DNA of 54,059 nt from Candidatus Gottesmanbacteria bacterium (GTDB lineage: Bacteria > Patescibacteriota > Microgenomatia > UBA10105 > UBA927), in assembly GCA_023245335.1 (NCBI GenBank), contig JAHFKK010000001.1:1164053-1218111 (forward strand). The letters run 5' to 3'. Each line of letters opens with the position of its first letter. Within the stretch, counting starts at the first letter, position 1. The notes under the pieces are model-generated. The model had not been told where the DNA came from. It saw only the letters and a list, made by a program, of their open reading frames with translations, and did no database searches. The position numbers and the translations under genes are program-made. This document shows positions 4,899-51,281 of the stretch, piece after piece.

Positions 4899-4928
4899 TC
4901 CTGCGGAGCAGGATCTGGCTTCGCCAGA
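4899..4928 (-). repeat. 30-bp double-hairpin element, copy D
   Basis: Minus strand TCTGGC-GAA-GCCAGA-TCCTGC-TCC-GCAGGA; two perfect 6-bp stems. Confidence 0.8.
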
Positions 4929-5086
4929 GACAGGAAGCGCAAAACCGGATACATCTCGGCCTCAAAGTTAATTCTACAACCATATCATTCTCGATAAAAC
5001 TTGATACTTTTTAGCCTAGTTCGTTACATTATTATATAGTTTTGGCCTCCTTGACACATCTTACATAACTCCCGTAGTCTGGTTAT

Positions 5087-5425
5087 ATGGACGTTTCTCT
5101 GCCCGCCATCGATGCATTTGTCGAAGAACTCATGAAACAAAAATTCGGAGATTCACGCCCTGACGAAGCCACATTTACTGCTATTAAACGGGAATTAACC
5201 GAAAAACTTAACCAATACCTCACACTCCGGACCATAGAAATGATTTCGGATACGAACCCTGAAGCAATCACACAACTTTCTGATCTCATCAAAACCAATC
5301 CCACTCCAGAACAAGTGAATACGTTCATCGGTAACTACGTGAAAGAGCCGGACATACTCGTTGCCCAAATTTTTGCTGATTTTCGCTCGCTGTATCTTGG
5401 CGTAAAGCCAGAACAAAGCAATTAA
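5087..5425 (+). CDS. Hypothetical helical protein (DUF5663-like)
   Basis: 112-aa ORF ending 6 nt before the giant gene; family resemblance recalled, not searched. Confidence 0.7.
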   Translation: MDVSLPAIDAFVEELMKQKFGDSRPDEATFTAIKRELTEKLNQYLTLRTIEMISDTNPEAITQLSDLIKTNPTPEQVNTFIGNYVKEPDILVAQIFADFRSLYLGVKPEQSN

Positions 5426-5431
5426 TCGCCT

Positions 5432-8400
5432 ATGCCAGACCCGATACCAAACCAGGAAATACCCTCGTCATTGAATATCGTCGTGGGTGAAACACCGCTC
5501 TATCTCAAAACGCCACAAAAAATTGGCGGGCAAGAGGTCACTTCACTCATTATCCAGGCTACCGATAAACGAGGTGCCGCAGGAATTGATAGCTCTGTCT
5601 TACTTGTCAAGGAACCCAGCCGCAAAAAGGGCGAAGAAGGGGCTATCATCGATAAACCCGTTAATCATGTCGATCCCATGGATCAAATGGCTTGGGATAA
5701 AGTATCCGGCGTCCAGTGGACCGATGAGACAGGAGTTTCCCATATCATACCCAAAGAAGAATTGAGTTTAAATCAACCGGTACCCGATGCAGAAGAAATG
5801 ACAGGAACGGAACCAAAAGCAGAAGGCGCTGACGGCCTCTCTATGACAGCAAATGAAAAACAAACAGAGCCAGCTCAGCCTGTCGCCGGATCTCTATCGG
5901 AAGCACCAGTTCAGGAACCCCCCACAGAAAAACCGGCCGAAACAGTAGGATCGCAATTCGAAACTCAACAACCAGAAGTGATGCCGGAAGCAACTCCTCC
6001 CGTAGAACCTTTACCAAAGGTAACACCCGCCAAAGCCCGCGAGGTGCTCTCTTCGCTCACTGAGGATCCCAATACGATAACCATCGTTGGCCTCCGTGCG
6101 TACGAAACACGCGCTCTCGATCTTGCTGATCGGGCGATGCAACGCTTGGGAACACCACGGGTGACCGAACGCGCAGAATCGGCCAAAAACCTCTGGGACA
6201 AAACCAAAGATGTCGCAATGGGTCTCGAGCACGTACTCGTCGATACCGTCTGGAAGCAAAGTATCGGCGGCCTCTACTTCCATGAGCGTGCCCGGCAATA
6301 TTACCTGGGTATGATACGTGCCGCGGAAACGCCGTTTGCCGAACAATCCATACGGTTAGCAGAAGCCAGAGCTACCGACCGATATAACAAAAAACTTGCG
6401 GATGCCAATTTCCTTAGCCGCGTAGGCATGAGAGGAATTGAGGCATTACGGGACACGTTGGGTATGCGCACGGCCATCCAAAATATGGCGCTAGAAGAAA
6501 TCGGCGTCATGAAGACAAACGGAGAACTCCAGGGCGCTGAAACATTTGAACGCGAGGCAAAAGCAGTCCGTGTACGATTCGGCCAGGATTTCGACCGCGC
6601 GGATCAGTTCGTGCGCACCCAGCTCGGTGAAAAACTCGAGATACTGGATGCCACAAAAGAAGAACACAAACCATTGGTAGAAGGCATACAAGGATTACTC
6701 AAACAGTACGCAACAGGCGAGATAACTGACCGCGCTGAATTTGATAAACGAACAAAAGAATTCTTCAATGCGACCCTCAAAAATGTCCGGCCGGATATTT
6801 TCGCTGAGGCAGAATTATATAGTTCGAGTCTTTTTGATGCGGCAGAAACACTACGAAATAAAATGTCGCATGAGGCAGGACTTGCCAATATAGACGAAGC
6901 GTTATCCGGCATGCAGATCCGTCTTGGCCTGGGACAAATGGGTGAGGTCACAAGTCTTGAACCGACAGCTGTCGAACGTGGCGTTAGCCGAGTCCGCGAA
7001 GTGACTGACTGGCTGAACAAAAATAACGTCATCGTGCCGATGGTGTTTAACGAAGTCACGATTGGATCGGGTGTTGCCATTGCCCTGTCCGCAGTGAAGT
7101 TCCTGCAGACCGCGCCGTTCCGTGCTGTTGCTGGTATCACCGGACCATTAGGCAGTATCACCGGAGGCGCACTTGCGGGAGGCATATTTGCGGGATGGCG
7201 CGAATACGGACAACTGCAAAAAGATTACCTCACCCATCTACGCGAACGCGAAACAGGCACGCAATTTACCGAATCTATGAAACGACGTGCTTGGTTTGAG
7301 CGATTGAGTGTGAAACAGCGAAGCGCGAATGAAATGATGACCACCATGCAAAACGCGCTCTACGAGACTCTACCCGAAGGGAACATTGGAGACACGTTGA
7401 AAATAAATCTGACTGATGATGAACTCCGGACGACATTTGCGACCATCGCCGATCTGCAATCGCGCAAGGCAGTGAGCGAGACCGGTCCAAAAAGAATCGG
7501 TTTGATACAGTATTCCAGCCGTGAGGCGATAGAAAGTGAGCGAAGCGCTCTCGATATCGTCGCCAATAAGGCACTCACTGATCTTGACACCTACCTTTCC
7601 TCGCACGCAGATCAGGCGTCGAGTGTCCTGGGCGGCAACACATTCTCCGAATTTATGGTCAAGCTCACCACCAATCAAACACAGGTTTTGAAGCAAGGAG
7701 TCGGAGTCATCGACAGTTTCGACGATCCGGTCAAAGCGACGCTGGGCATTGTTTCCCAACATGCGCCGGAAATTGACCTCGTCAAACGCCGCTGGCCGTT
7801 TGCGGGACGGGAAACAACCGGAGAAGAAAAAGTGATGGGGATGGATGCAATACTTATGGAATTCAATAAAGAAGCCCGTTCAGAAGCCATCAAATATGGT
7901 GTCAGAGCCGGAGTCATCGGAGCGGGAGTCGGTGCGGTACTTCACCTTGGGGATCTTCATGCCGCCCCGGATGCTTCACATGTAGGAGGAGTAGCTTCCA
8001 CCGCATCAATCGGTCATGCAGGGAAAGAAATAGGAAATATCGCTTCTTCTTCGACCACGGTCCCGCCCGAGGGTCTAACGACCGCGGCACAGAAAGTCAT
8101 AGAAATCGGCCCACCCCATCAGGTGATGGTTGATGGAATTACCGGGGCCAACAACGAACCTTTGAGCGCGATGTTACCGCCCGGTTATAATTTCCAACAC
8201 CTCATAGTCGGAGGTCACATGGATAAGTGGGAGCTCATCGGACCGGATAAGCAAGTCATCCTAAACAATCTAAGCTTCAGTCCCGACGGGACACTTGCTA
8301 ATGCTACCGAAGTTCAACAACAACTCGCCGCCCATGGTTTATCAATGACAACAAACGCCTTGCCTGCCGAACAGATTGCAGGTGCGGCAGCAAGTGGATC

Positions 8401-11314
8401 TCATGAGATCGGACTGATTGCGGGACCTAAATTTACGATCACCGGCGACGAGCTTCCGAAGGGTGGATTATGGGATTACTTCCTGATACGCGCACGTGAT
8501 GCGAATGATCCGAACGGTCTTGCAACGACTAATCTGTTGAAAAATCTTTTCCGTCTCTATACGCACGACCATCAATCAGAAGTAATTAGCTCCACAGGAC
8601 ACCCCGGATACTTTGACGCGCCTGAACACCTGCGCGCGGCGACCTACGGCACTCTCGGGAAAGTCAACGAAGTCGATCTTACGAAGATCCCCAACGACGC
8701 ACAAATAAAATTGCCCGAATCAGTCTTTGGTCAGGACGCAATTAGTCGTATTCGAGACCTGAATACACAGGCAATCAAAGATTATCAGCATGTCCTCGCA
8801 AGCAACGCGAATGTCCATGGACCCGGACAGGCAATCAATGCGATGTATAACGATACCACTAATCCAAACTATAAAATGGAAGCGGTCATCCTCAGGCTTG
8901 GTTATCAGGGCCAGGACTCAGCGCTTCCGACCAAACCGGAAGATCTGAAGCTCGTCTACGACGCCCTACACGCGACCGTGCAGTCTGCGCAAGCCCCACC
9001 AGAGACAACAATGCATCAAGTCATAATTTCCGCGAGCACTCCTCCCGGAGCGGCTATTTCCGGAGCACTCGGCCACGACGCAAGCGGCGTAATGGATAAG
9101 CTTCACGCTGCTGCCGCTGAGACAACGCGAAACATTATCGATAAAGGTGAACGCGACGTGATAGCAAGTGCTGCCAAACAAAATATCTTCGACACGGCAA
9201 GTGCTTCCGCGCGTACGTTGGCAGAAAACGCCGCCCATGCCTTCGGCGCCATCCCACAATCTGAAATGCCCTGGTTCCCGATCTTCATCCCGTATCATGC
9301 GTCACTTGAAATGGCGCCGGTCGAAATCGTGAGCACACTTCCCAAATCCGAAAACATGCTCCTCTCCCCCTTCGGGATGGAAGATGCATTCCTTACGAAA
9401 GACGCGATAACGGCAAGACGTTCTCCTCGTCTTTCCGAAAACCCAGCGATACAACTCAAACAGAATGAGGAAATTTCCTGGTACCTCTCTCAATTACCAG
9501 AACAAGATACACAAACGCTTACTGAACTCCTTTCTCAGACGACGGGTAAACCCATATCTCCGGACGTCCGCGCGGTTGTTACTATGCCGACCATCGGCAT
9601 GACGACATCTGTCTACGATCGTTTGCAAAGTTATGTCGGCCAAACAAATGCCGATGGCTCACCGCTGAATCCGAAAAAGGTGGAATACGTGGTCTACGAC
9701 GTCGCGGTGACGAACCAAGTCACTCCGTCCGAAATTGCATCCGCAAAAGCTGATGTAGAACGATTCATGAAAGATCATCCCGAAGCACAGGTACTCTACC
9801 TGTCACGATCGTACGAACCGCCGGTACAAGCTGGTCGGATCAAACGGGACATGACCAATGTCGTGCTTTCCCGTATCGGAACACTGCCCGTCGACAGCCA
9901 GGATGTTTCGATCCTTTCTGATAATGGCGGCATCGCCGTTCAGCCCACATATCTTGCGAGCACGATTAGTATATTCGATGCCGAACCGGCTGTTGATCTG
10001 GTCACGGGTGAAAGCAAACTCGATCCCCAAGCATATAGTGAATTCCCCATGTTGTTTGCGCCGCATCATGCATTTGAGTTATTTGATGCATTAGTACGCC
10101 ACGGTGAATCCGGCCATGTGCCGGGCATCATTTCGGGAAACAATGCGGTCCGTGCCTCCACGCTTGCCGGCGTTGGCGGCTACAATAGTGCCACCCCAAT
10201 CGCAGAGGATCGCGAGCTTGCCTGGATGATACAAGCTGCCCGCGGAGATTCATCCGACACCATACGGACTATCCCGGCACTCACAACCACAGCCGATCCA
10301 ACGGAACTTTCCTACCGCATGCTCCAACATGTGGGACTTGCCGACAACAACGTCGCACGAACTGATAATGACACATACAAAACTCTCGGATGGAAAGACT
10401 TAGCACAAAAAGCCAACGAGGCCTATACCAAAGAACTATTTGAGGCGGATCTCAATAATCTCTATACGGGTATTTATCCGTCATTGAAGGCTTCTAATCC
10501 AGTCCGTTTTGATGCGTACTTCAAGCGGACCATGGATACACTCGGAATCCAATATGAAGTGACCGACGGCAAAATTCACCTTCTGGATACGACGACCCTT
10601 CCTGCAAATATGGCGGCAGAGCTCGATACGGAATCATTCGCAAAACAGGCAGCGACCGAAGTAGTCACTGCTACTCCGCCCGAACCGGCAACACCGCGCG
10701 AATCATTACAAAATCTTGCAGGCCCTGCGGAGAAGCCCGCTTCGCCAGAACAAACGCAAGAAACCATGGCGGCCTCCATTTCGTCCCCGGAAGTCCGAAC
10801 GAAAGGGACAGCCGTAACTCCAGAAACGACTGGCACCCCCCAACGAGCGGAAACACTTCCTGAGGGCGTAGAGGATAGGGTCAACTACATACTAAATAAA
10901 ACTAAAGAATCCACAGCTGCCGTAGATGTCACGACCGGAGAACTCATGGACTATCTGAAGTCAAGACTAGAAATGGCAGGAAATACCCGAATTACGGACG
11001 GAAAAATAATAATAGACGGCAATACGGTGACTCTTGCCGATATGAAGGCAAAATCATTTGTCGGCAATGTATTTTTCAACGGCAAAATGGTTACTGATCC
11101 CCAAAAAGGGCTGATCGTCGATATGAATACAATCCACTACGAGTTGCCGCTTCTCATGCGCCTATTTGAGGGCCGCATCAAAAACCAGCTTGGACACTTC
11201 AACGACACACTCCTCCTCCACATGAGTCAGCGCATCCCCACAACATGGAAAGCCGACCGCCTGGACATCGTCGGGGGGAAGATAGAAGTGAAATTCTCAA
11301 AGAATACAAAATAA
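5432..11314 (+). CDS. Giant 1960-aa protein with Gly-rich hydrophobic helices and a C-terminal GT2-like domain
   Basis: Long open frame; hydrophobic G-rich segments near 7030-7200 and 7895-7950; GT-A-like region near 9565-10330 (VVTMPT, VGGY...AEDRELA). Confidence 0.9.
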   Translation: MPDPIPNQEIPSSLNIVVGETPLYLKTPQKIGGQEVTSLIIQATDKRGAAGIDSSVLLVKEPSRKKGEEGAIIDKPVNHVDPMDQMAWDKVSGVQWTDETGVSHIIPKEELSLNQPVPDAEEMTGTEPKAEGADGLSMTANEKQTEPAQPVAGSLSEAPVQEPPTEKPAETVGSQFETQQPEVMPEATPPVEPLPKVTPAKAREVLSSLTEDPNTITIVGLRAYETRALDLADRAMQRLGTPRVTERAESAKNLWDKTKDVAMGLEHVLVDTVWKQSIGGLYFHERARQYYLGMIRAAETPFAEQSIRLAEARATDRYNKKLADANFLSRVGMRGIEALRDTLGMRTAIQNMALEEIGVMKTNGELQGAETFEREAKAVRVRFGQDFDRADQFVRTQLGEKLEILDATKEEHKPLVEGIQGLLKQYATGEITDRAEFDKRTKEFFNATLKNVRPDIFAEAELYSSSLFDAAETLRNKMSHEAGLANIDEALSGMQIRLGLGQMGEVTSLEPTAVERGVSRVREVTDWLNKNNVIVPMVFNEVTIGSGVAIALSAVKFLQTAPFRAVAGITGPLGSITGGALAGGIFAGWREYGQLQKDYLTHLRERETGTQFTESMKRRAWFERLSVKQRSANEMMTTMQNALYETLPEGNIGDTLKINLTDDELRTTFATIADLQSRKAVSETGPKRIGLIQYSSREAIESERSALDIVANKALTDLDTYLSSHADQASSVLGGNTFSEFMVKLTTNQTQVLKQGVGVIDSFDDPVKATLGIVSQHAPEIDLVKRRWPFAGRETTGEEKVMGMDAILMEFNKEARSEAIKYGVRAGVIGAGVGAVLHLGDLHAAPDASHVGGVASTASIGHAGKEIGNIASSSTTVPPEGLTTAAQKVIEIGPPHQVMVDGITGANNEPLSAMLPPGYNFQHLIVGGHMDKWELIGPDKQVILNNLSFSPDGTLANATEVQQQLAAHGLSMTTNALPAEQIAGAAASGSHEIGLIAGPKFTITGDELPKGGLWDYFLIRARDANDPNGLATTNLLKNLFRLYTHDHQSEVISSTGHPGYFDAPEHLRAATYGTLGKVNEVDLTKIPNDAQIKLPESVFGQDAISRIRDLNTQAIKDYQHVLASNANVHGPGQAINAMYNDTTNPNYKMEAVILRLGYQGQDSALPTKPEDLKLVYDALHATVQSAQAPPETTMHQVIISASTPPGAAISGALGHDASGVMDKLHAAAAETTRNIIDKGERDVIASAAKQNIFDTASASARTLAENAAHAFGAIPQSEMPWFPIFIPYHASLEMAPVEIVSTLPKSENMLLSPFGMEDAFLTKDAITARRSPRLSENPAIQLKQNEEISWYLSQLPEQDTQTLTELLSQTTGKPISPDVRAVVTMPTIGMTTSVYDRLQSYVGQTNADGSPLNPKKVEYVVYDVAVTNQVTPSEIASAKADVERFMKDHPEAQVLYLSRSYEPPVQAGRIKRDMTNVVLSRIGTLPVDSQDVSILSDNGGIAVQPTYLASTISIFDAEPAVDLVTGESKLDPQAYSEFPMLFAPHHAFELFDALVRHGESGHVPGIISGNNAVRASTLAGVGGYNSATPIAEDRELAWMIQAARGDSSDTIRTIPALTTTADPTELSYRMLQHVGLADNNVARTDNDTYKTLGWKDLAQKANEAYTKELFEADLNNLYTGIYPSLKASNPVRFDAYFKRTMDTLGIQYEVTDGKIHLLDTTTLPANMAAELDTESFAKQAATEVVTATPPEPATPRESLQNLAGPAEKPASPEQTQETMAASISSPEVRTKGTAVTPETTGTPQRAETLPEGVEDRVNYILNKTKESTAAVDVTTGELMDYLKSRLEMAGNTRITDGKIIIDGNTVTLADMKAKSFVGNVFFNGKMVTDPQKGLIVDMNTIHYELPLLMRLFEGRIKNQLGHFNDTLLLHMSQRIPTTWKADRLDIVGGKIEVKFSKNTK

Positions 11315-11327
11315 GAGGAGGACATTA

Positions 11328-13719: not shown

Positions 13720-13733
13720 TCCACATCAATATT

Positions 13734-15378: not shown

Positions 15379-15449
15379 AGCTAATCACATCAGGAATACA
15401 CCTTCTGCCGGAGGCATAATAAATAAAGAGTACAATAGTAAGTTGAGAT

Positions 15450-15476
15450 AACCGGCAAGGGGGTGCCGGTTTTTTG
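15450..15476 (+). terminator. Rho-independent terminator
   Basis: AACCGGCA-N6-TGCCGGTT followed by a T-tract, about 70 nt after the stop. Confidence 0.75.
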
Positions 15477-15478
15477 AT

Positions 15479-16490
15479 GGCTGCTTAACGAGTATCCGAG
15501 TGTAGCAGCCGATCAATCCGGCGAGAAGCGCTCTTTGCGCCGTGTACGAATAAGTACCAGCCTCGCCGGATAGGCGGGACTGAAAAGGCGCAAAGCAAGC
15601 TCTGACGGATTGGTGGTTTTTGTTGAAATATCAACCTAAATAAGTATAGTTAGCACTTTTAAATATAGACTGATAAATATCAATATGTATCTTCGGAAAT
15701 GAGTCCCGCCCTGTCTTACGGCAGGAAGGCGGGCGGGATTCGTTTCTGGAGGTAACTCTCCGGATACGGATGATTTGTAGGAAGAACAAATGCGTTCTCG
15801 CTCTATCAACTTCATCCGTAGCACTTTAACAAGGCATACAGGGGAACAGTTTCTGACCCGATTCACATCGGGACAGAAATACTGTCGCCTGTCCTCTTGA
15901 GGACAGGGAAACGACACATGTTGTGTTGCTTCCCGCGTTCATACAGTGGACAGGAACTTAGTTTGCAGCAATGCGGACTAACGATTCTCATATTCCGGCG
16001 CCTTTCGCCCGTCCCTACATATCATTGCGGTATTAAGGGGCGTCGAAACGGACCGTTGGGACATGAAGATCATCTCTCAATAATATAGTTAGAAGCGTCA
16101 GCCAAAGGCTGATCGGCCTCTGACCGAGAACTGCGGACTATACGGACGTGCTTACTCCTCTTTGATGTCGTCTCTTACGGCGACCCGCCGTTGAGGCGGG
16201 AGTGTGTTTCATTTCCCCACTTATGTACAGAATATAGATTCTGTATGTATTGGGGAAATGAAATAAGAATATATTAAGAAATTTTGGGGGAAATTAAGAA
16301 GAAAAATAACGCGTCTTTGGGGGAAAATCTTGGGGGATTTCGAAAAAGCATGCGAACGGCATGTTTTGCGACGCAAAATATCCAGATTGTTTGTTTTATT
16401 TAAACAATAATCCGGATTATACCCGAAACACCACTCCCCTCCCGACTTGGGAGACCTGGGGGTGTTAAATAAAATCGTCCCGCACCAACG
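15479..16490 (+). ncRNA. Candidate large structured ncRNA(s) or structured leader, family unknown
   Basis: More than 12 stems of 6-14 bp, GNRA loops (GTAA, GCAA), + strand G-U pairs, a pseudoknot; no credible ORF. Confidence 0.45.
16098..16127 (+). repeat. 30-bp double-hairpin element, copy A
   Basis: TCAGCC-AAA-GGCTGA-TCGGCC-TCT-GACCGA. Confidence 0.75.
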
Positions 16491-16546
16491 GGATGAAATT
16501 CATCATGCCGCCGGCAAAAAAAACCGACGGAAGAGGAGAAAAGGCA

Positions 16547-19376: not shown

Positions 19377-20657
19377 ATGAAACACAAAACATATTCACTG
19401 CTTGTCATATCAAGCTTCCCTCATAAGAACGAAACCCATGGCCAGGCAACGGTGGGAGTCGCTTCCTATACCAAAAATGTTCTGGCCTCTCTTCTCTCCT
19501 ACGCCAACAAGCACCGTAAACACGTCAAAATAAACGTCTTCGCTGAGCAACTTGATAACTCACCCCGAGCGTATGTTGACCATGGGATAACCGTACAGCG
19601 CCTATGGAAAAGAAACAATATCATTCCATTTCTTAAACTTATCCGCAAATGCATGCTTACACCCGCCGACACAACCCTTATAAGTTTTGAGTTCGCTATG
19701 TTTGGAGATCCGTGGACACTTATCCCATTTCTCCTCCTTCTCGCGACACTTCGCATCTCAAAGAGGCGCGTCGTCGTCGCTCTCCATCAGGTCGTAGAGG
19801 ATATTACCCAATTGTCCGGACATTTGGACCTGTCGGGTCGTTCCGTATGGTCCGATGCAACAAGCGTCGCTCTTGCCTTGTTTTATCAGATATTAGTGAG
19901 ACTAACGACGAAAGTGGTTGTGTTTGAAGACTCTCTGAAGTCCTATCTCGTCAAATTGACCAACCACGAGAACGTTGACGTCATCCCGCACGGGGTCGAA
20001 AACGTACCATCGGTTTCTCAGCAAACCGCCCGTAAGCGCCTACACCTCACCAAACGTTTTACCATTCTTTGTTTCGGATATATCGCCTGGTATAAAGGGA
20101 CAGACTGGGTTGTGAACTACATACATCAATACGCAAAGCGTCTGCATACTCCGATCCGCCTCATTATCGCAGGGGGGCCGAATCCGAATCGCGTTGGTCT
20201 TTCCTTTTACCGCAGGTACCTGCATCACATAAAACAACAGGCACTGCAAAGCGAAGACAGTGTTGTCGTAACCGGATACGTGCCGGAAAAAGACATTAAG
20301 ACATATTTTTCAGTAAGTGACGTCGTTGTTTTTCCGTATCGGATCATGATGAGCGCGAGCGGCCCGCTGGCTCTCACACAAGCCTATGGCAAACCCTATC
20401 TTCTCTCAACGGCATTAGCGCCAACGCTTGAAGCGGCTGACGCCACCCGGCAAATGGAAAATCTCGCACTATCTGAACGTCAGCTGACGTTTACCCTCAA
20501 TGAAACGGATTTGATACATCAAATCAAATTGCTCCAAACGAACCGCAAGCTTCGTACCCGGCTGGCGAAATTTTCGCGGAATATAGGACTATCTCGACGC
20601 CTTACCAACATAAACAGTATATGGTGGGATGAGCTCATGGAGGAAGACTACTTATGA
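19377..20657 (+). CDS. GT4-family glycosyltransferase
   Basis: VIPHG, FGYIAWYKG, SDVVVFPY...SASGPL..T.AYGKP. Confidence 0.85.
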   Translation: MKHKTYSLLVISSFPHKNETHGQATVGVASYTKNVLASLLSYANKHRKHVKINVFAEQLDNSPRAYVDHGITVQRLWKRNNIIPFLKLIRKCMLTPADTTLISFEFAMFGDPWTLIPFLLLLATLRISKRRVVVALHQVVEDITQLSGHLDLSGRSVWSDATSVALALFYQILVRLTTKVVVFEDSLKSYLVKLTNHENVDVIPHGVENVPSVSQQTARKRLHLTKRFTILCFGYIAWYKGTDWVVNYIHQYAKRLHTPIRLIIAGGPNPNRVGLSFYRRYLHHIKQQALQSEDSVVVTGYVPEKDIKTYFSVSDVVVFPYRIMMSASGPLALTQAYGKPYLLSTALAPTLEAADATRQMENLALSERQLTFTLNETDLIHQIKLLQTNRKLRTRLAKFSRNIGLSRRLTNINSIWWDELMEEDYL

Positions 20658-24311: not shown

Positions 24312-25922
24312 TTATGATTCCTTCTTCGTTTCCGGCTCGCGGGCGTGGGATGGATTCGTGCGTTCCGCTTCCCTAGCTTTGCGCTTTAACTCCTGGCGGG
24401 CATGCTTGGCGTTTGTCTGGATTGTCCGGTTCATACTATCTAGAATCCGGTCTTGCGGCGGCAGAATTACTGGTTTGGTCGACACATCGATGTGTACCTC
24501 CTTTATCTGCTGACCGAAATTTGGGGACAGATTGCTCTTTTGCTTAGCTTTCTGTGACGCTCTCTTTTCTAAAAACAATGCTTTATCCCGAATCGACTGT
24601 GACTGTCGTGCGTCATCTTCTTCATTCCGCGCAGCGATCCCCTCTAATGAAGTAGTTGCTGTACGGGGAGATTCTTTCAAGCGTCGCCTCAGGGGAAGAA
24701 TCCCTTTTTGAGTGGCTTGTCCAAAATCTTTTTGCTCTTCAAAGATGTCCGGTAATTGTTGTTTGAGACGCATGATGACCCGCTCTGCTTTTGATACAGG
24801 GAGATATTCTGACGCGAGAAACTCCTGCAATCCCTGTGCGGTAGCGCGGGGCAACCCGGGAAATCCTTCCCGTTCCAATTGGTCCAAAAACGCCTGACGC
24901 GCCTCTGGACGCTTTACGAAATTGGGCATAGCGTGATCTACCCAAACCTCTGCAACCCGACGCATAAGGCCGCGGCGATTCTTCTGGGAAAGGGCGCCTC
25001 TGTCTTGCGACAACACCCGTACTGCAGCACGCATCGCTTCATAAGCTTCCAGGGGGGGCGGCGTAGTATGCATTTTTTCCAACACAAAGTTAAACCCCGG
25101 CGATTCTTTCGGCGAAACAGCTCCATCCGATATTTTTGGCCCAATAGAAGAAATATCGGGGTGTAAATCCGCACGCATGAGTCCGGTGATATGCTTCGCG
25201 CGACCGAGCGGTACGTCAGAAGCCCGTAATATGCGCTTCATCCCGGGCGCATCGGCCTGAACCCAAAGATCATACAGTTTGGCGCCGTCAGCCGCACGAG
25301 ATCCCCAATGATGCTTTTTCGACGCATCAGCATGAGCACGGATGAATAGTTGTTTCATTCCGTTCCCAAGGTCTGTCCGGGAAGCGTCATCGCTCACGCG
25401 TGTAATGTCCCTGAATAAAGGGCTGTAGTCCGGATTATGTACGTTTGCCATGATGGTAGACAGTATGGCGGTAAGCCCCGCAATTTCTATAGGTTTCGCC
25501 CCGGTCCTGTCAGTAACCGCACCCCCAACACTGGTCAAGTATTGTGCAAGTTGTTTCGGCGGCTTCGGCAAGTCCACTTCAATGCGCTTCAGGTTACGGT
25601 CGGCTAAAGTTGTTTTCAACAATTCCAGTAATTTCTGTCCGGCGACGGCTGCACCAAATACTTCCGCTGTCGTGACTCCCACTGCGGCGTACGTCGCCGC
25701 CTCTTCAATTCCGACATGATGATCTATAAGCCACTGCCTTTGTTTGGAATTGAGTTTGGGAGCTACTTTTTCTACAGCTTCGAGTATCCTTCTTTTCCAA
25801 GCGCCGGGCCCCTGACTCTCTATTACTTTCTTCGTGCCATCCCACGCGCCATACAACACCTGTTTCACCCCGGTGTGCAAGGGTTCCCGATACGGCATTA
25901 CTGCTGGTGCGCTTTCTATCAT
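24312..25922 (-). CDS. Hypothetical 536-aa protein
   Basis: Long ORF; one Ala/Gly-rich hydrophobic stretch; charged C-terminus. Confidence 0.8.
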   Translation of the reverse strand: MIESAPAVMPYREPLHTGVKQVLYGAWDGTKKVIESQGPGAWKRRILEAVEKVAPKLNSKQRQWLIDHHVGIEEAATYAAVGVTTAEVFGAAVAGQKLLELLKTTLADRNLKRIEVDLPKPPKQLAQYLTSVGGAVTDRTGAKPIEIAGLTAILSTIMANVHNPDYSPLFRDITRVSDDASRTDLGNGMKQLFIRAHADASKKHHWGSRAADGAKLYDLWVQADAPGMKRILRASDVPLGRAKHITGLMRADLHPDISSIGPKISDGAVSPKESPGFNFVLEKMHTTPPPLEAYEAMRAAVRVLSQDRGALSQKNRRGLMRRVAEVWVDHAMPNFVKRPEARQAFLDQLEREGFPGLPRATAQGLQEFLASEYLPVSKAERVIMRLKQQLPDIFEEQKDFGQATQKGILPLRRRLKESPRTATTSLEGIAARNEEDDARQSQSIRDKALFLEKRASQKAKQKSNLSPNFGQQIKEVHIDVSTKPVILPPQDRILDSMNRTIQTNAKHARQELKRKAREAERTNPSHAREPETKKES

Positions 25923-26013: not shown

Positions 26014-26592
26014 TCATAATTTAAATATTTTCCTGAGATCCTCGTCGTTCTCCAAAGAGCATATAGTCGCAATCTTCACAAAATGCGGGATACCATATAC
26101 TTCCCGTAAAAATTGAATCTGCTTGTCGCAGGGATACGGATACACGTACACACTCTTTTGCATTTGATAAAAGCCTATCGATTTGAGGTGATCGCGAAAG
26201 GCGGCGCGGACATGTTCTTCACCGGATGGGATATCAAATATCACCATGCGCCACATACCATCCCAATGCGTTTGCGTCGGCACTTCCAGGTCATGCACAT
26301 CATACCGAAGTATTTCTGTTTTACCACGATCGGAAAGCGTCACGGCATAACCGCCGCGAGACTCCGTCACCTGTGCATATCCATGTCTCCAAAGTCGAGT
26401 CAATTGGCGATTTACTGAAGAAGGATAATAGACCTCCCAATCCGGCCCCATGTGGCTGAGCGGATGACGAAATTTAATGTGAAACGTGTCAATAACTTCA
26501 ATGGCCAATGAGGCTCCAGACTGGAGAAGCAACAACAATATTTCTTTCGTTATATGCTCATGCGGCTTGGATAGTTCACGATGTCTTGCCAT
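26014..26592 (-). CDS. PaaX-like regulator: winged HTH + Cas2-like domain
   Basis: LTRLWRHGY...TLSDRG wing; WDGMWRMVIFDIP...R..L...GF...QKSVYV. Confidence 0.85.
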   Translation of the reverse strand: MARHRELSKPHEHITKEILLLLLQSGASLAIEVIDTFHIKFRHPLSHMGPDWEVYYPSSVNRQLTRLWRHGYAQVTESRGGYAVTLSDRGKTEILRYDVHDLEVPTQTHWDGMWRMVIFDIPSGEEHVRAAFRDHLKSIGFYQMQKSVYVYPYPCDKQIQFLREVYGIPHFVKIATICSLENDEDLRKIFKL

Positions 26593-29495: not shown

Positions 29496-29525
29496 TCGGC
29501 CAAAGGCCAATCCGCCTCTGGCGGA
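29496..29525 (+). repeat. 30-bp double-hairpin element, copy B (just past the lepA stop)
   Basis: TCGGCC-AAA-GGCCAA-TCCGCC-TCT-GGCGGA. Confidence 0.75.
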
Positions 29526-46041: not shown

Positions 46042-46048
46042 TCCCAAA

Positions 46049-46933: not shown

Positions 46934-47087
46934 ACACACGAAATTTTTGCTTTGATAAATGAACACTCATTGCACGTCATCATACATTTCCGGAATTAAG
47001 CGTGAATCTACTCTATACCTATAGAATGTAAATGACGGTCCAATATTCCTTATGGTATCAGCCTCAACCATATCGTGTTTGATACAG

Positions 47088-47978: not shown

Positions 47979-47980
47979 AT

Positions 47981-48631
47981 CTATAGGACAAGCTGGTCTT
48001 TTATCTTAGTAAATAGCGCCTGACCTATGACCTTTTTCTCAACCAGCTCATCGAGTCTCATATATGGTCGCCCGGAAATAATCTTCCCGGCCGTTACCGG
48101 ACCCACTCCGGAAAGTGATTCAAGTTCAGATTGAGTCGCTGCGTTGATATTGACAACCCCTGCCGGTGCAATACTTCCGGATGATCCCGCCGAAGAAGGT
48201 TGACCAGTAGCTACGGCCTCATCACCAAGAGCTGGAATATAGAGTTTGGCGCCGTCGGAAAGCTTGGCAGCACGATTAAGTAAACGCGAAATAGCGGCAA
48301 TGTCGGCGCGTTTCGATAATCCCCCCGCAGCCGTTATACCATTATCCACCCGACTTCCCGCAGGTAAACGATAGACACCGGGCCTTATAACCGCTCCTTC
48401 GACGTCAACCGTAAGCATCTGCACCTCGGAACTTCCCGTCGCTTCCGTCGTAATTCCGGAGATTGGTGAACCCGAAGAAAATATGATCGGCGTAGAAGAC
48501 TGATACGATTTGATAAATATCGTTACAGATAGACCTACAAAAATCAGACTGATGAATCCGAGAATAATTGGCGCATGATACACTCGCCAGAGCATTTCTG
48601 GAGTGATGACACGATCATCATCCTCTACCAT
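47981..48631 (-). CDS. comEA: ComEA DNA receptor (TM, SLBB, HhH)
   Basis: VDVEGAV..PGVY.L..GSRV, VNINAAT..EL..L.GVGP..A..II. Confidence 0.95.
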   Translation of the reverse strand: MVEDDDRVITPEMLWRVYHAPIILGFISLIFVGLSVTIFIKSYQSSTPIIFSSGSPISGITTEATGSSEVQMLTVDVEGAVIRPGVYRLPAGSRVDNGITAAGGLSKRADIAAISRLLNRAAKLSDGAKLYIPALGDEAVATGQPSSAGSSGSIAPAGVVNINAATQSELESLSGVGPVTAGKIISGRPYMRLDELVEKKVIGQALFTKIKDQLVL

Positions 48632-48704
48632 ATATAAACATTAGAGCACGGGAAGAATAAAAATTCTGTAGGATAGGATACGTCTAGAAATACAGAACAA
48701 ATTC

Positions 48705-51281
48705 CTAAATGACAAAGTTGATTACCTTACCCCGGACGAAAATAACTTTCCGTATTTTTGATTCGCCAAGAAATTTCTGTACTTTTTCCGATAATCGGGC
48801 TTTAGCCTCAACTTTTTCCTGCGAACTTACGCTTTCTATATCTATCTGCATCGAATCCCGAAGCTTACCGTTAACTTGAATGACAACGGTCACTGTATCC
48901 TCGACAAGATAGTGTTTATCATACCCGGGCCATGCTTGTTGATGTATGGACCAAAGCTGTCCAGACGCTTCGCGTCGAGAATCCGCGGCTTTGAGCCGGG
49001 ACCAGAGCTCTTCGGTGAGATGTGGCGCATAGGGCGCCAATACAAGCAGAAATGTTTTTAGCAATTCAGGACTTAAGGTGCCATTTTCATCGGCAACCAG
49101 GTTAGTAAACTCCATCATGGCTGCAAGCGCGGTATTGTAGTGACGGCTCTCCGTGTCCTCTCCTACCTTCTTTACCAACTTATGTATTGCTTTGATACAT
49201 TTGTCAGAATCCTTGCTATGAGTGCCAGGTTCTAAGGAGATTGTCGCCATGCGCCAAATGCGTCCGACCCATCGCGACATGCCTTCCATGGCGGAATCAC
49301 GAAAATCTCCACCATCAGAAAAGGGTCCCATGAACATAAGATACATCCGAAGGGCATCTGTTCCGTATAGTTTGATATACTCATCAGGATTAACTACGTT
49401 GCCTTTACTCTTACTCATCTTCGCGCCGTCTTTAATAACCAGTCCATGCGCATAAAATTCCGGAAACGGCTCTTCCCAGCCCGAGGCTGGTCCGCCTTTG
49501 GCGGAAAAATCGAAATATCCCCAGTCACGTAAACACATCCAGACGAATCTGCTGTACATGAGATGAAGCACGGAATGTTCAGCTCCCCCGGTATACATCG
49601 TGACCGGTAACCAGTTTTTCGTGATCTTCGGATCAAACGGTTGCGTATCCGCAGTCTTGGAATTGACAGAGGGATAGCGTAAAAAGTACCACGAACTATC
49701 TAAAAATGTATCAGAAACGTCTGTCTCACGGACGGCCTTACTACCACAACCGGGGCATATTGTTTCATAAAATTCTTTATGCTTCGCAAGAGGTGCGATA
49801 CCATCATCTCCGGGTTTGTAGTCTTTAATATTTGGTAATTCTACCGGCAAATCTTTCTCAAGCACTGCATACCATCCCGGCATATCATGACGCTCCCCTT
49901 TACCATTCTTCTCGCACAAAACGCAATGAATCATGGGAATGGGCGGACCCCAGTACCGCTGCCGGGAGATAAGCCAGTCTCGCAAATGATACATCGTCAC
50001 GCGCTTGCCCCAGCCCTTTTTCTCCAAATGATCCATCATAAGACCTATCGACCGTTTGATATCAATACCGTCCAAGAAGCCCGAATTGATCATTTTACCT
50101 TCATCTTCCTGCACTTGTTCAGGCTTGGTGATAGGACTCGTATCTCCGTCTGCCCCGACAACAACTCGCTGTACAGGAATTTTCATGACTTCCGCAAACT
50201 CAAAGTCTCGCATATCGTGACCAGGCACACCGACCACAGCCCCGGTCCCGAACTCCATAACCACAAAATCCGTCACATAAAGCGGCATTTTATATCCTGT
50301 AAGTTGATTGACACAGTACAATCCTGTCGCTACTCCCGTCTTTTTCCGACCCCGCGCTATCCGATCCTCATGCGAAGCTTTTTTAGTTTTTTCTACGTAG
50401 CGGCCTACTACAGCAGCCTGATCTTTTTTTATCACCGCTTGTATCTGACTGATAAAGGGATGCTCAGGTGCTAAAACGACGAATGTAGCACCGAAGTTGG
50501 TATCCGGTCTTGTAGTAAAGCACGTTATCTCTCCTATTCGCTTTCCTTTTTCATCAACGACCGGATAAGTGATATTTATCCCCTCTTTTTTCCCGATCCA
50601 GTTCCGTTGAGCGATCAAAACCTTTTCTGACCATTTCAGGCTCGATATATTTTCCAGCAGTTTTCCCGCATATGCGGTAATTCTAAAGAACCATTGTTCT
50701 AGTGCTTTCTTTTCTACTAAATTCCCGCAACGTTCACACTTCCCATCTATAACCTGCTCATCTGCCAGTACCGTCTTATCTGCAGGACACCAGTTGACTT
50801 CTGCTTTGGACCTATATGCCAATCCATGTCTGAACATCTGGACGAATAGCCACTGGGTCCACCTATAGTAGTCAGGGTCGTACGTTTGAACCGTGCGCTT
50901 CCAGTCATACATACATCCGATCATATGGAGCTGCCGGTAGAAATTTTCCTCGCTGCGCTTTGCCTGCTCCAATGGATGCGTCCCAACCTTCAGTGCATAA
51001 TTCTCACTATGTATGCCAAATCCATCAAGTCCTATGGGCTCAAAAACATCATATCCCTGCATCCGTTTATACCTCCCGTAGATATCTGTACCGGTAAACG
51101 CATACATATTCCCCACATGTAACCCTTCCGCTGAAGGGTACGGGAACATCATAAGGTTATAAAATGGCTTTCTGACAGTCTCCATATCCAATGTGTTGAG
51201 ACTCTTATCGTGCCAAATTTCCCGCCATTTAGCCTCAACTTTCTCGTGAAGATAGGAATTTTTTTGCGCTGTATCGCTCAT
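48705..51281 (-). CDS. leuS: Leucyl-tRNA synthetase
   Basis: MFPYPS..GLHVGN, WLISRQRYWG.PIP, YTGG.EH, KMSKSKGN, VIQVNGKLR. Confidence 0.98.
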   Translation of the reverse strand: MSDTAQKNSYLHEKVEAKWREIWHDKSLNTLDMETVRKPFYNLMMFPYPSAEGLHVGNMYAFTGTDIYGRYKRMQGYDVFEPIGLDGFGIHSENYALKVGTHPLEQAKRSEENFYRQLHMIGCMYDWKRTVQTYDPDYYRWTQWLFVQMFRHGLAYRSKAEVNWCPADKTVLADEQVIDGKCERCGNLVEKKALEQWFFRITAYAGKLLENISSLKWSEKVLIAQRNWIGKKEGINITYPVVDEKGKRIGEITCFTTRPDTNFGATFVVLAPEHPFISQIQAVIKKDQAAVVGRYVEKTKKASHEDRIARGRKKTGVATGLYCVNQLTGYKMPLYVTDFVVMEFGTGAVVGVPGHDMRDFEFAEVMKIPVQRVVVGADGDTSPITKPEQVQEDEGKMINSGFLDGIDIKRSIGLMMDHLEKKGWGKRVTMYHLRDWLISRQRYWGPPIPMIHCVLCEKNGKGERHDMPGWYAVLEKDLPVELPNIKDYKPGDDGIAPLAKHKEFYETICPGCGSKAVRETDVSDTFLDSSWYFLRYPSVNSKTADTQPFDPKITKNWLPVTMYTGGAEHSVLHLMYSRFVWMCLRDWGYFDFSAKGGPASGWEEPFPEFYAHGLVIKDGAKMSKSKGNVVNPDEYIKLYGTDALRMYLMFMGPFSDGGDFRDSAMEGMSRWVGRIWRMATISLEPGTHSKDSDKCIKAIHKLVKKVGEDTESRHYNTALAAMMEFTNLVADENGTLSPELLKTFLLVLAPYAPHLTEELWSRLKAADSRREASGQLWSIHQQAWPGYDKHYLVEDTVTVVIQVNGKLRDSMQIDIESVSSQEKVEAKARLSEKVQKFLGESKIRKVIFVRGKVINFVI
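48964..48998 (-). repeat. Twin short hairpins inside an apparent leuS insertion
   Basis: Minus strand CGGCT-CAA-AGCCG ... GACGC-GAA-GCGTC encoding part of RLKAADSRREASG. Confidence 0.5.
49476..49505 (-). repeat. 30-bp double-hairpin element, copy C, in-frame in leuS
   Basis: TCCGCC-AAA-GGCGGA-CCAGCC-TCG-GGCTGG = SAKGGPASGW, exactly codon-aligned. Confidence 0.85.

Follow-up and report, generated by a model that had tools for sequence, protein, structure and literature searches.

Two-fold symmetric 30-bp double hairpins in Patescibacteria, a probable family of non-autonomous insertion elements

Known short palindromic elements

REP sequences and REPINs are short G+C-rich palindromes of 20-40 bp that function as inverted pairs of hairpins, with a 'clover' fold possible; they are dispersed, non-autonomous and often located directly downstream of genes, and some families lie in frame within genes for DNA repair or replication, uvrA, uvrB and polA among them (Di Nocera et al. 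2013, PMC3733652; Bertels & Rainey 2011, PMC3116915). Intragenic REPs are tagged with GTAG or CGTC (PMC3733652). We describe an element that resembles them in these respects, including the kinds of host gene, but has no unpaired GTAG or CGTC tag; such a tag was found within 8 nt at 14/142 sites among the matches listed, which is not above chance. Its hairpins, with 6-bp stems and 3-nt loops, abut without a spacer in a total of 30 bp, compared to roughly 70-110 bp for a REPIN. About one third of its copies are intragenic, its flanks are a symmetric TTY^RAA, and its hosts are Patescibacteria. Four copies lie in the window (the whole 54,059-nucleotide stretch analyzed here), whose host genome is Gottesmanbacteria-like. 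The window contains no transposase-like gene, in agreement with the earlier note, which had placed the mobilizer outside it. A search for RAYT homologues found none in the window and none in 8,293 ORFs from the fetched loci. The REP/RAYT analogy drawn in that note therefore fails on the tag, the RAYT and the intragenic third of the copies.

Among the Rickettsia palindromic elements (RPEs), RPE-1 is roughly 100-150 bp long. As described in PMC3733652, RPEs resemble our element in being in-frame palindromic repeats in ORFs of a reduced-genome bacterium, tolerated as added peptide segments in proteins that remain functional. RPE-4 and RPE-6 are counted there among the CGTC-tagged REPs. RPEs are not known outside Rickettsia, whereas our element is 30 bp, untagged and spread across many Patescibacteria classes.

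The double-hairpin elements (DHEs) of Allomyces mitochondrial DNA (Paquin, Laforest & Lang 2000, cited in PMC2800124) and related mitochondrial G+C-rich hairpin clusters are similar in setting two G+C-rich stem-loops side by side against an A+T-richer background genome, in being conserved mainly in structure, in being present or absent between relatives, and in lacking flanking duplications (PMC2800124). Our element differs in its fixed length of 30 bp, its defined TTY^RAA target and its location in bacterial chromosomes, and the likeness is one of architecture, not of compared sequence. DHEs are organellar (fungal mitochondria), vary in length, and insert in intergenic DNA, rRNA genes and protein genes.

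Small dispersed repeats (SDRs) of heterocystous cyanobacteria, described by Elhai et al. (2008; cited in PMC3116915), are reportedly mobile-looking, shorter than about 30 nt, inserted precisely relative to orthologous sequences and in some cases hairpin-forming. Our element is likewise tiny and precisely inserted. No mobilizer is known for them. SDRs are not known to consist of two abutting hairpins or to be noted for lying in frame in essential genes, and their sequences and hosts are different. IS200/IS605 elements insert asymmetrically, on the 3' side of a single defined tetra- or pentanucleotide, whereas here both flanks are specified, and symmetrically. Their recognition of hairpin ends on single-stranded DNA and their duplication-free insertion are nevertheless comparable to what we propose here, as is the non-autonomous nature of MITEs and of the palindrome-associated elements derived from IS200/IS605 (PATEs), which depend on a transposase acting in trans. 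MITEs measure 70-300 bp, carry terminal inverted repeats and duplicate their target (PMC3733652); our element makes no target duplication.

Copies in the window and spread of the family

The element consists of two abutting 6-bp G+C-rich stems, each closed by C-G around a 3-nt loop, and its length is in every case divisible by three. One loop is purine-rich and the other pyrimidine-rich. On both strands the purine-rich loop is in the 5' hairpin and the pyrimidine-rich loop in the 3' hairpin, so the element is two-fold symmetric and any strand label is arbitrary; those given previously (+, +, -, -) are uninformative, and we assign none. The earlier note had reported the four double hairpins at the positions given below, with sequences exactly as written here, and had described them as conserved in shape, not sequence. 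This is too strong, as there is a clear family consensus, TCCGCC-NRA-GGCGGA-YCNGCC-TYN-GGCNGR, part of which was imposed by the search pattern itself.

Copy D (4899..4928; TCTGGC GAA GCCAGA TCCTGC TCC GCAGGA, as read on the - strand) has all 12/12 pairs Watson-Crick, with a GGC/GCC stem subtype, and is intergenic, 14 nt after the stop codon of ORF 4511-4885(+). Copy A (16098..16127; TCAGCC AAA GGCTGA TCGGCC TCT GACCGA) forms 11/12 pairs in a 1.1-kb ORF-free region (15379-16492), where its flanks form a 6-bp stem, TATAGT/ACTATA, around it. Copy B (29496..29525; TCGGCC AAA GGCCAA TCCGCC TCT GGCGGA), also with 11/12 pairs, is intergenic between ORF 28811-29395(-), upstream of which it lies, and lepA (29533-31380, -), whose stop codon it follows by 8 nt. 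The single C-A mismatch in each of copies A and B is a G-T pair on the opposite strand. Copy C (49476..49505; TCCGCC AAA GGCGGA CCAGCC TCG GGCTGG, as read on the - strand) has 12/12 Watson-Crick pairs and lies in frame in leuS, encoding SAKGGPASGW. These placements, namely two copies after stop codons, one within a flanking stem and one in frame in a gene, are those noted previously.

Chance does not account for these copies. No perfect double hairpin arose in 60 dinucleotide shuffles of the window, and loci with at least 11/12 pairs numbered five in the window compared to about 0.2 per shuffle on average; the fifth, at 16349-16378, is unrelated in sequence to the four copies. A covariance model trained on 130 copies from other genomes, with the window copies left out, matched exactly the four copies at 34-54 bits (E 1e-6 to about 1e-11): 37.4 bits for copy D (E 1.6e-7), 39.2 for A (5.8e-8), 39.9 for B (3.8e-8) and 53.5 for C (2e-11). 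Matches ranking after these reached at most 14 bits. One is a putative variant with 5-nt loops at 4440..4471 (TCGCC TCTTC GGCGA CCCGCC GACGA GGCGGG; 14 bits, E 0.07), at the 3' end of ORF 2431-4479. A second copy of this variant at 16165..16203 (..GGCGA CCCGCC GTTGA GGCGGG; 11.9 bits, E 0.2), 40 nt downstream of copy A, has GGCGACCCGCCG..GAGGCGGGA in common with it.

A pattern scan of GTDB genomes found at least 120 loci. Among the matches listed, about half carry a Patescibacteria label, and 99/124 sites have 12/12 pairs even though the pattern left six pairs free (chance 1/512); in a viral scan, none of 51 non-element pattern matches exceeded 9/12 pairs. The family is widespread in Patescibacteria, with further copies in contigs labeled as several other phyla and some labeled as viral, although many MAG contigs carry unreliable taxon labels and the cross-phylum spread may be overstated. 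Additional copies in the other loci occur at about one strong copy per 79 kb, compared to four copies per 54 kb in the window. Strong and decayed extra copies are about equal in number, which could reflect selection on structure rather than recent insertion.

Copies were found in intergenic DNA, in coding genes and in tRNA fragments, the last being pseudogene or att-like fragments rather than functional tRNAs. Among the matches listed, 45/136 sites, about a third, are in ORFs that run on for 70 codons or more, free of stops, to both sides of the element. Host genes include uvrA, uvrB, mfd, polA, dnaG, pheT, aspS, hisS, cca and tgt. Frame 0 is read in 38/47 coding copies among the matches listed, and this usual frame yields Ser-Ala-x-Gly-Gly-Ser/Pro-Ala-x-Gly-Gly/Trp. 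An internal stop is present in 1/48 frames spanning the element among those matches, compared to an 11% background, and the TCAGCC..GGCTGA variants, whose frame 0 contains TGA, occur in ORFs only in other frames.

Filled and empty sites in leuS

The host gene of copy C, leuS (48705..51281, - strand), encodes an 858-aa leucyl-tRNA synthetase (LeuRS). The insert is placed between the helix that follows HLMYSRF and the EEPF motif, with KMSKS downstream, and solved LeuRS structures are without these 10 residues. The LeuRS peptide across the insert reads GGPASGWEEPFPEFYAHGLVIK.

Orthologous sites either contain the element as a precise 30-bp block or lack it altogether. An insert of exactly 10 aa (30 nt) occupies one codon junction in 10/120 LeuRS orthologues, and the junction is empty in 110/120. 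The 5' target half, TTT (Phe codon, 49506..49508, -), and the 3' half, GAA (Glu codon, 49473..49475, -), are unchanged in empty alleles: the filled allele reads GATTTT^E^GAAGAG (E, element), compared to GATTTT^GAAGAA in an empty one and GATTTT^GAAGAR in empty alleles generally, so there is no target duplication. Carriers are dispersed on the gene tree, requiring 9-10 Fitch parsimony steps, equal to random tips, over 200 bootstrap NJ trees, and the closest relative of every carrier (73-83% identity) is empty. The proposal of a dispersed mobile element is thus partly supported, by exact presence/absence and patchy distribution; of the empty sites and target duplications that the earlier note had suggested looking for at orthologous loci, the former were found, whereas the latter gave way to symmetric TTY^RAA flanks.

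Base pairing is upheld by compensatory differences between copies, as claimed previously. In 11 distinct LeuRS inserts selected solely by their position, pairing holds in 97% of cells and both sides differ at 6/12 pairs, which 0/500 shuffles matched, in lineages whose synonymous sites are saturated. Pairing persists while the insert peptides differ (SAKGG, SGEAG, PASGW, PRSAW, SRFAG), and third codon positions are fixed within the insert but vary freely in the flanking codons. In an unbiased positional sample of metagenome contigs, chosen solely by the LeuRS flanks plus any 30 nt, the double hairpin was present in 13/13.

Carriers also differ upstream of the insert. A Trp codon (TGG, 49539..49541, -) 12 alignment columns upstream is present in 9/10 carriers and 0/110 empty LeuRS, which have Thr, and further insert-linked changes, Cys and Tyr/Arg/Phe, reach up to 12 columns upstream. 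This pattern is not predicted by simple insertion in trans and points to short-tract recombination of the filled allele or to repeated compensation. Over the 39 nt that separate the Trp codon from the insert, no synonymous haplotype common to carriers was found. Of the roughly five TTYRA sites that fall on codon boundaries in leuS, a single one is ever filled.

The flanks follow the same rule elsewhere. Among the matches listed, 100/132 sites have T at -2, 104/132 have A at +2, and 81/136 have both, as expected under independence. TTY and RAA already exist in empty sites, and no target-site duplication was found at the insertions examined. The element may have a regulatory role, the alternative offered in the earlier note. 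The T-run before the element and A-run after it correspond to a reversed intrinsic terminator, and a T-run is on the terminator-proper side in only 21/142 sites among the matches listed.

Origin and consequences of the insertions

We favor, with a probability of about 0.6, the interpretation that the four copies belong to a family of 30-bp two-fold symmetric, non-autonomous insertion elements, similar to REPs, RPEs and DHEs and mobilized in trans. An unlikely explanation, though the foremost of the others, is templated insertion without a dedicated transposase, in which replication or repair stalls at a hairpin or close to one and the nascent strand switches template to another copy through TTY microhomology, copies 30 nt and returns at RAA; ectopic gene conversion is a variant. 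Either process would confine new copies to TTY^RAA and leave no duplication, so the apparent target would be the flanks of existing copies. The lack of duplication, the presence of both half-sites in empty alleles and the failure to find a transposase in the window, or a RAYT there or in the fetched loci, are all consistent with this, and a route other than DNA transposition has been proposed for the Allomyces elements, also free of flanking duplications (PMC2800124, citing Paquin et al. 2000). However, three nucleotides of microhomology per side is very short, and neither the near-identical consensus in very distant lineages and virus-labeled contigs nor the Trp-linked LeuRS residues are accounted for. 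Slightly less probable is that the hairpin pair is a selected recognition site rather than a parasite, with filled alleles spread by short-tract homologous recombination. It could be a DNA-uptake or recombination signal in naturally competent bacteria bearing ComEA and ComEC, or a protein-binding or RNA-stability hairpin. Compensatory pairing at one orthologous site across saturated lineages, the scarcity of decayed copies, the position of two of the three intergenic window copies directly after gene ends, and comEA and comEC adjoining leuS in the window and in relatives argue for such selection, and the insert and upstream residues travel together despite their scatter on the tree, as recombining allele classes would. 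Against it, copies originate as 30-nt insertions rather than by point mutation, their density is low where known uptake sequences are far denser, the flanks are those of a reversed terminator, carriers lack a shared synonymous haplotype beside the insert, and invading many essential genes of unrelated kinds is behavior more often associated with selfish DNA.

Two further explanations carry little weight. That the element is a mini-intron or a translational bypass, removed or skipped in expression with host proteins unaffected, is disfavored and very improbable. Ribosomes of yeast mitochondria do bypass GC-rich hairpin inserts, and some copies are within tRNA-like sequences, but these are pseudogene or att-like fragments, and an invariable multiple of three, the avoidance of in-frame stops in long ORFs and the exclusion of TGA-giving variants from frame 0 all speak against removal or skipping. 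The least credible is coincidence at the protein level, with an ordinary lineage-specific LeuRS loop whose Ser, Ala and Gly codons happen to form hairpins, and unrelated intergenic look-alikes. TCC-GCC (Ser-Ala) is the reverse complement of GGC-GGA (Gly-Gly), which can make SAxGG peptides appear palindromic. This explanation is refuted by the shuffles, the covariance-model matches, family-wide pairing and compensatory changes; three of the four window copies are non-coding, and in LeuRS it is the peptides that vary, together with the third positions of flanking codons only.

If mobilization in trans is correct, the element would be selfish DNA inserted, now or recently, by an enzyme encoded outside the window. 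That element and target are both two-fold symmetric hints at an activity that works as a dimer at TTY^RAA, or else at one that recognizes the hairpins folded in single-stranded DNA. The element may be recognized by its structure, as the earlier note inferred. Neither a transposition intermediate nor within-population polymorphism was seen in the public runs with the genome, which hold DNA contigs only. Copies probably persist in genes because 30 nt is divisible by three, stops are absent from the usual frame, and a Gly/Ser/Ala loop is harmless in surface loops, while intergenic copies near gene ends may have a secondary role as RNA 3'-end hairpins. The element enters essential genes, such as that for leucyl-tRNA synthetase, in frame, and is read there as ten extra amino acids.

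Copies in the window and their relatives

A mechanical scan of the window for the 6-3-6/6-3-6 architecture, a 30-nt element made of two abutting hairpins, recovered the four copies claimed in the earlier note, with identical sequences at all four positions. Copies C (49476-49505) and D (4899-4928) have 12 of 12 Watson-Crick pairs, and copies A (16098-16127) and B (29496-29525) have 11 of 12. Double hairpins exceed the shuffled expectation at the scale of the window, as the earlier note would predict: no perfect 12/12 locus arose in 60 dinucleotide-preserving shuffles, and five loci with at least 11 pairs were observed versus a mean of about 0.2 per shuffle. The fifth of these, at 16349-16378, is unrelated in sequence to the four copies. 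A covariance model trained on 130 copies from other genomes, with the window copies excluded, found exactly A to D in the window at 34-54 bits (E-values of 1e-6 to 2e-11), everything else scoring 14 bits or less. The predicted single-strand fold of B, C, and D is the double hairpin; in copy A the second stem is damaged and a 6-bp flanking stem encloses the element. Fold z-scores of 70-nt windows around the copies are modest (-1 to -2.8), and therefore the case is built on covariation and distribution rather than on energy.

Two features of the original description need revision. The strand labels given to the copies (+, +, -, -) are uninformative because the element is two-fold symmetric, with a purine-rich loop in the 5' hairpin and a pyrimidine-rich loop in the 3' hairpin on both strands. 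The second 15-nt hairpin is approximately the reverse complement of the first; among the matches listed, 8 of 142 copies are perfect 30-nt palindromes, and both hairpins have the same stems in 49 of 142. The element had also been described as conserved in shape and not in sequence; a sequence consensus exists besides the shape.

The settings of the copies are those reported previously: two after stop codons, one in a stem loop, and one in frame. Copies D and B follow stop codons, D that of the ORF at 4511-4885 after 14 nt and B that of lepA after 8 nt. Copy A falls within a 1.1-kb stretch that has no credible ORF (15379-16492). Copy C lies in the reading frame of leuS (48705-51281, - strand), the gene for leucyl-tRNA synthetase (LeuRS), where it encodes SAKGGPASGW; the closest relatives of this LeuRS are from Patescibacteria, with names such as Gottesmanbacteria. 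Several other explanations of these sites were set aside. The copies are not part of a known RNA family, given that the window had no Rfam match at the gathering threshold and nothing above noise came from scans at E ≤ 1 of the window end and the surroundings of copy A. ARAGORN detected no tRNA or tmRNA in the window with the element present or deleted in silico, which argues against copy D as part of either, despite the resemblance of its flank GGTTCAAATC to a T-loop. A longer flank common to B and C (GACTGGGGTAT) is at chance level (2 matches versus 1.4 expected).

The stretch that contains copy A, without an Rfam match of its own, has four more pairs of abutting hairpins (15872-15907, 16165-16203, 16349-16378, and 16392-16420), and could either encode a structured RNA or be a place where hairpin elements accumulate. 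Regardless of sequence, pairs of adjacent hairpins are more numerous in the window than in shuffles (9 versus 1.7). Weaker double hairpins with 5-nt loops at 16165-16203 and at 4440-4471, in the last codons of the ORF at 2431-4479, have GGCGACCCGCCG..GAGGCGGGA in common and possibly represent a second, related subfamily. In a low-depth contig of a related organism from one groundwater run, 95 bases including copy D (4880-4974) are replaced by 31 unrelated bases, with the flanking genes retained. A 1,960-residue ORF (5432-11314, + strand) has no Pfam domain, and the long ORFs at 2431-4479, 20654-23584, and 24312-25922 have no family match either. A 192-residue protein with a PaaX central/Cas2-like domain is encoded at 26014-26592 (- strand); no CRISPR array or further cas gene was noticed beside it in the window.

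Scanning one genome per GTDB species with the pattern TCNGSCNRAGSCNGAYCNNSCTYNGSNNGR yielded at least 120 loci. Because the pattern leaves six of the 12 pairs free to mismatch, full pairing is expected by chance in 1/512 of matches; it was found in 99 of 124 sites among the GTDB matches listed. The same pattern gave 61 matches in IMG/VR, of which 51 are in one conserved phage gene with at most 9 of 12 pairs and serve as a negative control. The other 10 are genuine double hairpins and have the usual flanks. These bona fide copies on virus-labelled contigs (L137, L139, L147, L161, L167, L168, L177, L178, L179, and L182) may belong to phages of the candidate phyla radiation (CPR) or to misassigned cellular contigs. 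By record title, 56 of 120 loci among the matches listed belong to Patescibacteria of many classes, including Saccharibacteria, Kaiser-, Lipton-, Moran-, Giovannoni-, Magasanik-, Doudna-, Gottesman-, and Daviesbacteria. Other listed loci include Omnitrophota, Ignavibacteria, Planctomycetota, Bacteroidota (among them an isolate of Marivirga), PVC groups, Chloroflexota, and loosely labelled MAGs, whose labels are too unreliable for true cross-phylum spread to be claimed locus by locus. Full-text literature searches gave no description of such an element in Patescibacteria, which is absence of evidence only.

The doublet is the canonical form: loci chosen by the double-hairpin pattern have 106 perfect pairs and few genuine singles, and triples are absent from them. 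A modular organization in singles and triples was rejected, as most apparent singles are doublets in which one arm has decayed. Across 709 kb of loci, model scores are bimodal: about 100 sites reach at least 33 bits, and about 12 score 14-28 bits. Outside the locus selection, strong and weak copies are similar in number and there is about one extra strong copy per 79 kb; the window, with four in 54 kb, is comparatively copy-rich. Where copies in other genomes have tRNA-like flanks, these are pseudo-tRNA or att-like fragments. For example, in an Ignavibacterium MAG (L073, 7843-7872) the element lies within the T-loop sequence GGTTC/GAATCC (the slash marks the junction) of a 3' fragment of tRNA-Ser. 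The intact tRNA lies about 50 nt upstream of this duplicated fragment, which resembles the att-type duplication that an integrated element leaves behind.

Filled and empty alleles of leuS

In an alignment of the best 120 LeuRS relatives, 10 proteins (carriers) have a 10-residue insert at the position of copy C and 110 have a clean gap; the latter include proteins 75-76% identical to the window LeuRS. In all six carriers whose DNA was compared, this codon junction is occupied by a 30-nt double hairpin of 6-3-6/6-3-6 form, and the stems differ with pairing kept (GCC with GGC versus GGC with GCC; CAGCC with GGCTG versus CACGC with GCGTG versus CCCGC with GCGGG). Filled alleles read GATTTT/element/GAAGAG, and three empty alleles read GATTTT/GAAGAA, GATTTT/GAGGAG, and CATTTC/GAAGAG. 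Empty orthologous sites, which would be expected of a mobile element, were thus found: filled and empty alleles differ by exactly 30 nt, and the TTY and GAR triplets are already present in the empties. Target duplications, the other expected trace, were not. None is seen in the LeuRS alleles, and direct repeats at the junctions are absent from 127 of 142 sites among the matches listed.

A metagenome scan that used only the LeuRS flanks and 30 free bases as its query gave 13 contigs, all with a double hairpin of 11-12 of 12 pairs. Among 11 distinct inserts picked by position alone, standard pairs occupy 97% of pair cells and six of 12 pairs changed on both sides. The observed covariation was reached by none of 500 shuffles, and sliding the partners abolishes pairing. 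The compensatory stem changes first noted in the window copies are borne out on these LeuRS inserts. Contigs from three DNA groundwater runs that hold the region include no reported clean 30-nt joint, and related contigs in these runs end exactly at the edge of copy C (49475).

The insert follows the helix that comes after the HLLY motif and precedes the strand ahead of KMSKS; other bacterial LeuRS have their leucine-specific domain in this region. In alignment, solved LeuRS structures are without the inserted segment, which a translated peptide such as GGPASGWEEPFPEFYAHGLVIK would span. Eight further TTYRA sites are present in leuS, four of them at codon boundaries, and only the copy C site was ever occupied. 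Upstream of leuS, a large + strand ORF has collagen-like Gly-X-Y triplet repeats (periods 9, 27, 45, and 81; G+C 0.58) from about 53080 to 54059 and past the window end. Relatives have giant genes of 2,454 to more than 6,000 residues in the same place, and metagenome contigs contain many repeat-length variants of the region. In three related loci, a 176- to 183-residue protein whose only recognized domain is a phage-integrase N-terminal SAM-like domain lies upstream of leuS and adjoins the giant gene (L001, 4205-4756; L005, 8800-9330; L129, 1834-2364). No listed ORF of the window is like it.

Carriers are scattered in the LeuRS tree. In a neighbour-joining tree from which 30 residues upstream to 40 downstream of the insert had been removed, the ten carriers take 10 parsimony steps (9-10 in all 200 bootstrap replicates), which equals ten random tips, and the nearest relative of every carrier (73-83% identity) is empty. 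A single-clade origin is ruled out by these bootstraps, as far as distance trees can tell. The scatter would mean repeated gain at one codon junction or repeated allele replacement via recombination, a phylogenetic reading that rests on distance trees. Precise loss from a site without flanking direct repeats seems unlikely.

The insert is accompanied by particular residues nearby. Trp occurs 12 alignment columns upstream of it in nine of ten carriers and in all four new metagenome alleles (window codon 49539-49541), compared with Thr in 110 of 110 empties and one carrier (P0055) of the protein set. Over the whole protein, the only columns that discriminate carriers are -12 (Trp), -10 (Cys), and -3 (Phe), with -8 (Tyr or Arg for Lys) behaving alike; empties have Thr, Ala, Lys, and Leu at -12, -10, -8, and -3. 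No synonymous haplotype is common to carriers over the 39 nt from the Trp codon to the insert. Plain trans-insertion does not predict these linked residues. They could reflect a short insert-bearing tract that recombines between lineages, convergent compensatory changes in the adjoining helix after insertion, or the only background that tolerates the insert.

Target, host genes, and known systems

Among the matches listed, the sequence at the element's edges is biased on both sides, with T at -2 in 100 of 132 sites, T or C at -1 in 103, A or G at +1 in 107, and A at +2 in 104; the consensus is TTT before the element and RAA after it. Both flanks are specified, and they are statistically independent (of 136 sites listed, 81 have both T at -2 and A at +2, 21 only T, 25 only A, and 9 neither). 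This differs from the asymmetric, one-sided target of the IS200/IS605 type. We found no flank complementarity beyond three bases. Insertion at the centre of longer palindromes appeared anecdotally (L025, L049, L093, and copy A) and was rejected after flank complementarity was scored at distances of 4-12 (2.32 pairs versus 2.33 in controls). The layout is not that of an intrinsic terminator: on both strands a T-run precedes the hairpins and an A-run follows them, and a run of at least four T on the terminator-proper side was found in 21 of 142 sites among the matches listed.

Many copies lie inside genes. Among the matches listed, 45 of 136 sites are in ORFs that extend 70 or more codons without a stop to each side. 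A stop occurs within the element in one of 48 such spanning frames, versus 11% of all site-frames, and the frame reading S-A-x-G-G-S/P-A-x-G-G/W is used in 38 of 47. Variants of the form TCAGCC..GGCTGA, which have TGA in the usual frame, occur in ORFs in other frames only. Stop avoidance and frame use fit an insert that is translated and selection against disruptive copies, and argue against removal of the insert at the RNA level. The usual frame is also expected because TTY/RAA at a codon boundary gives Phe-Lys or Phe-Glu, junctions that are probably common in these A+T-rich proteomes. Host genes include uvrB, mfd (two copies), pheT (two), dnaG, class II ribonucleotide reductase, uvrA, polA, aspS, hisS, the CCA-adding enzyme gene, tgt, and Fe-hydrogenase; these identities were read from sequence, and a profile search confirmed some, not all.

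The earlier note had named REP and Rickettsia palindromic elements (RPEs) as analogues, and both comparisons hold in part. REP- and REPIN-type units are tagged by an unpaired GTAG or CGTC tetranucleotide at one end, and uvrA, uvrB, polA, and other genes for replication and repair hold many intragenic tagged REPs (PMC3733652). A REPIN is a doublet of REPs that is able to fold into a clover and whose movement is attributed to RAYT dimers (PMC3116915). REP/REPIN, and the intragenic tagged REPs in particular, are functionally closest to the element, which is likewise an imperfect palindrome and an inverted hairpin doublet. The analogy fails in that GTAG, CTAC, CGTC, or GACG occurs within 8 nt of the element end in 14 of 142 sites among the matches listed, at or below the chance estimate, and in that the element is not predominantly extragenic, with the intragenic share and housekeeping hosts described here. 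No RAYT was found in the limited sequence available, and one may lie elsewhere in the genomes. The likeness to RPEs is in-frame insertion into functional ORFs, with extra residues whose translation is suggested by leuS copy C, the LeuRS orthologues, stop avoidance, and frame bias. RPEs are longer and Rickettsia-specific, whereas this element is 30 bp long, occurs in Patescibacteria, and lacks the CGTC tag of the RPE-4/6 type.

Allomyces double-hairpin elements (DHEs), according to PMC2800124 citing Paquin et al. 2000, have no flanking duplications. DHEs and the element described here have in common adjacent G+C-rich stem-loops, structure-based conservation, presence or absence between relatives, and the lack of target-site duplication. 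DHEs are organellar and are likened here by description, not sequence; because the host in our case is a bacterial chromosome, the relation is one of analogy, not membership. Small dispersed repeats of cyanobacteria (cited in PMC3116915) are reportedly a bacterial precedent for mobile-looking repeats under 30 nt. MITEs, at 70-300 bp with terminal inverted repeats and duplications, differ from a 30-bp unit without duplication. By analogy, the element appears to work like a palindromic insertion element of the REP/RPE/DHE type and is a member of none of these families. It is unusual in its fixed 30 bp, abutting hairpins, and symmetric TTY/RAA target without duplication, as well as in its prevalence in essential genes of CPR bacteria and in the recurrent, scattered occupancy of one LeuRS junction with a residue signature.

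Nature of the element and its consequences

We favor, at a probability of roughly 60%, the view that the element is inserted, selfish, and non-autonomous. This view is based on the exact insert at orthologous sites, the short, defined target, and the lack of duplication, together with a structure kept through compensatory variation, occupancy of any tolerant sequence, and wide spread. We are much less confident about any one mechanism of insertion. Because element and target are both symmetric, three routes can be proposed: a dimeric enzyme might act on duplex DNA at TTY^RAA, two folded hairpins might be recognized on single-stranded DNA, or no dedicated enzyme may be needed if template switching or ectopic conversion from existing copies proceeds via TTY/RAA microhomology. 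Consistent with the earlier suggestion that a mobilizer lies outside the window, Pfam searches of its approximately 40 ORFs found no transposase, recombinase, or HUH protein. A phmmer search with E. coli RayT, an insensitive single-sequence query whose best match was a membrane protein, gave nothing below E 0.1 among 8,293 six-frame ORFs from the window and the fetched loci (about 8 kb per genome).

In the alternative that we keep alive, the hairpin pair would be a signal under selection, and short-tract recombination would spread it among naturally competent hosts. The residues linked to the insert in LeuRS would suit such a signal, as would the small number of decayed copies; the low copy density and the origin of copies as insertions speak against it. 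A bolder proposal, which we consider rather doubtful, is that the element represents a new class of mobile DNA and the smallest known transposable unit, a 30-bp hairpin pair inserted bluntly at TTY^RAA by a dimeric enzyme without duplication. Such an enzyme, structure- or sequence-specific, would act by cut-and-paste or copying. The element would cross phylum boundaries, possibly on phages, and would repeatedly colonize essential genes of Patescibacteria at the same codon; in a variant, it would drive its own spread via natural transformation and short-tract recombination. The proposed mechanism matches none of RAYT/IS200 (asymmetric), DDE transposases (duplications), or integrases.

If the family reaches as far as these scans, whose counts are lower bounds, would indicate, then 10-residue inserts derived from selfish DNA and not from protein evolution would be present in thousands of Patescibacteria proteins, among them aminoacyl-tRNA synthetases, UvrABC, Mfd, PolA, and DnaG. 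This would have consequences for annotation, for alignment-based phylogeny of CPR marker genes, and for structure prediction. With this element, the REP/RPE/DHE phenomenon would reach into the candidate phyla radiation and take in an exceptionally small unit whose length is fixed, and the element's symmetric target without duplication points to an insertion mechanism yet to be identified. The LeuRS junction could serve as a test case that separates insertion, compensation, and recombination in uncultivated bacteria, and the element, which is easily scored, could provide a marker for population-level studies of CPR genomes.
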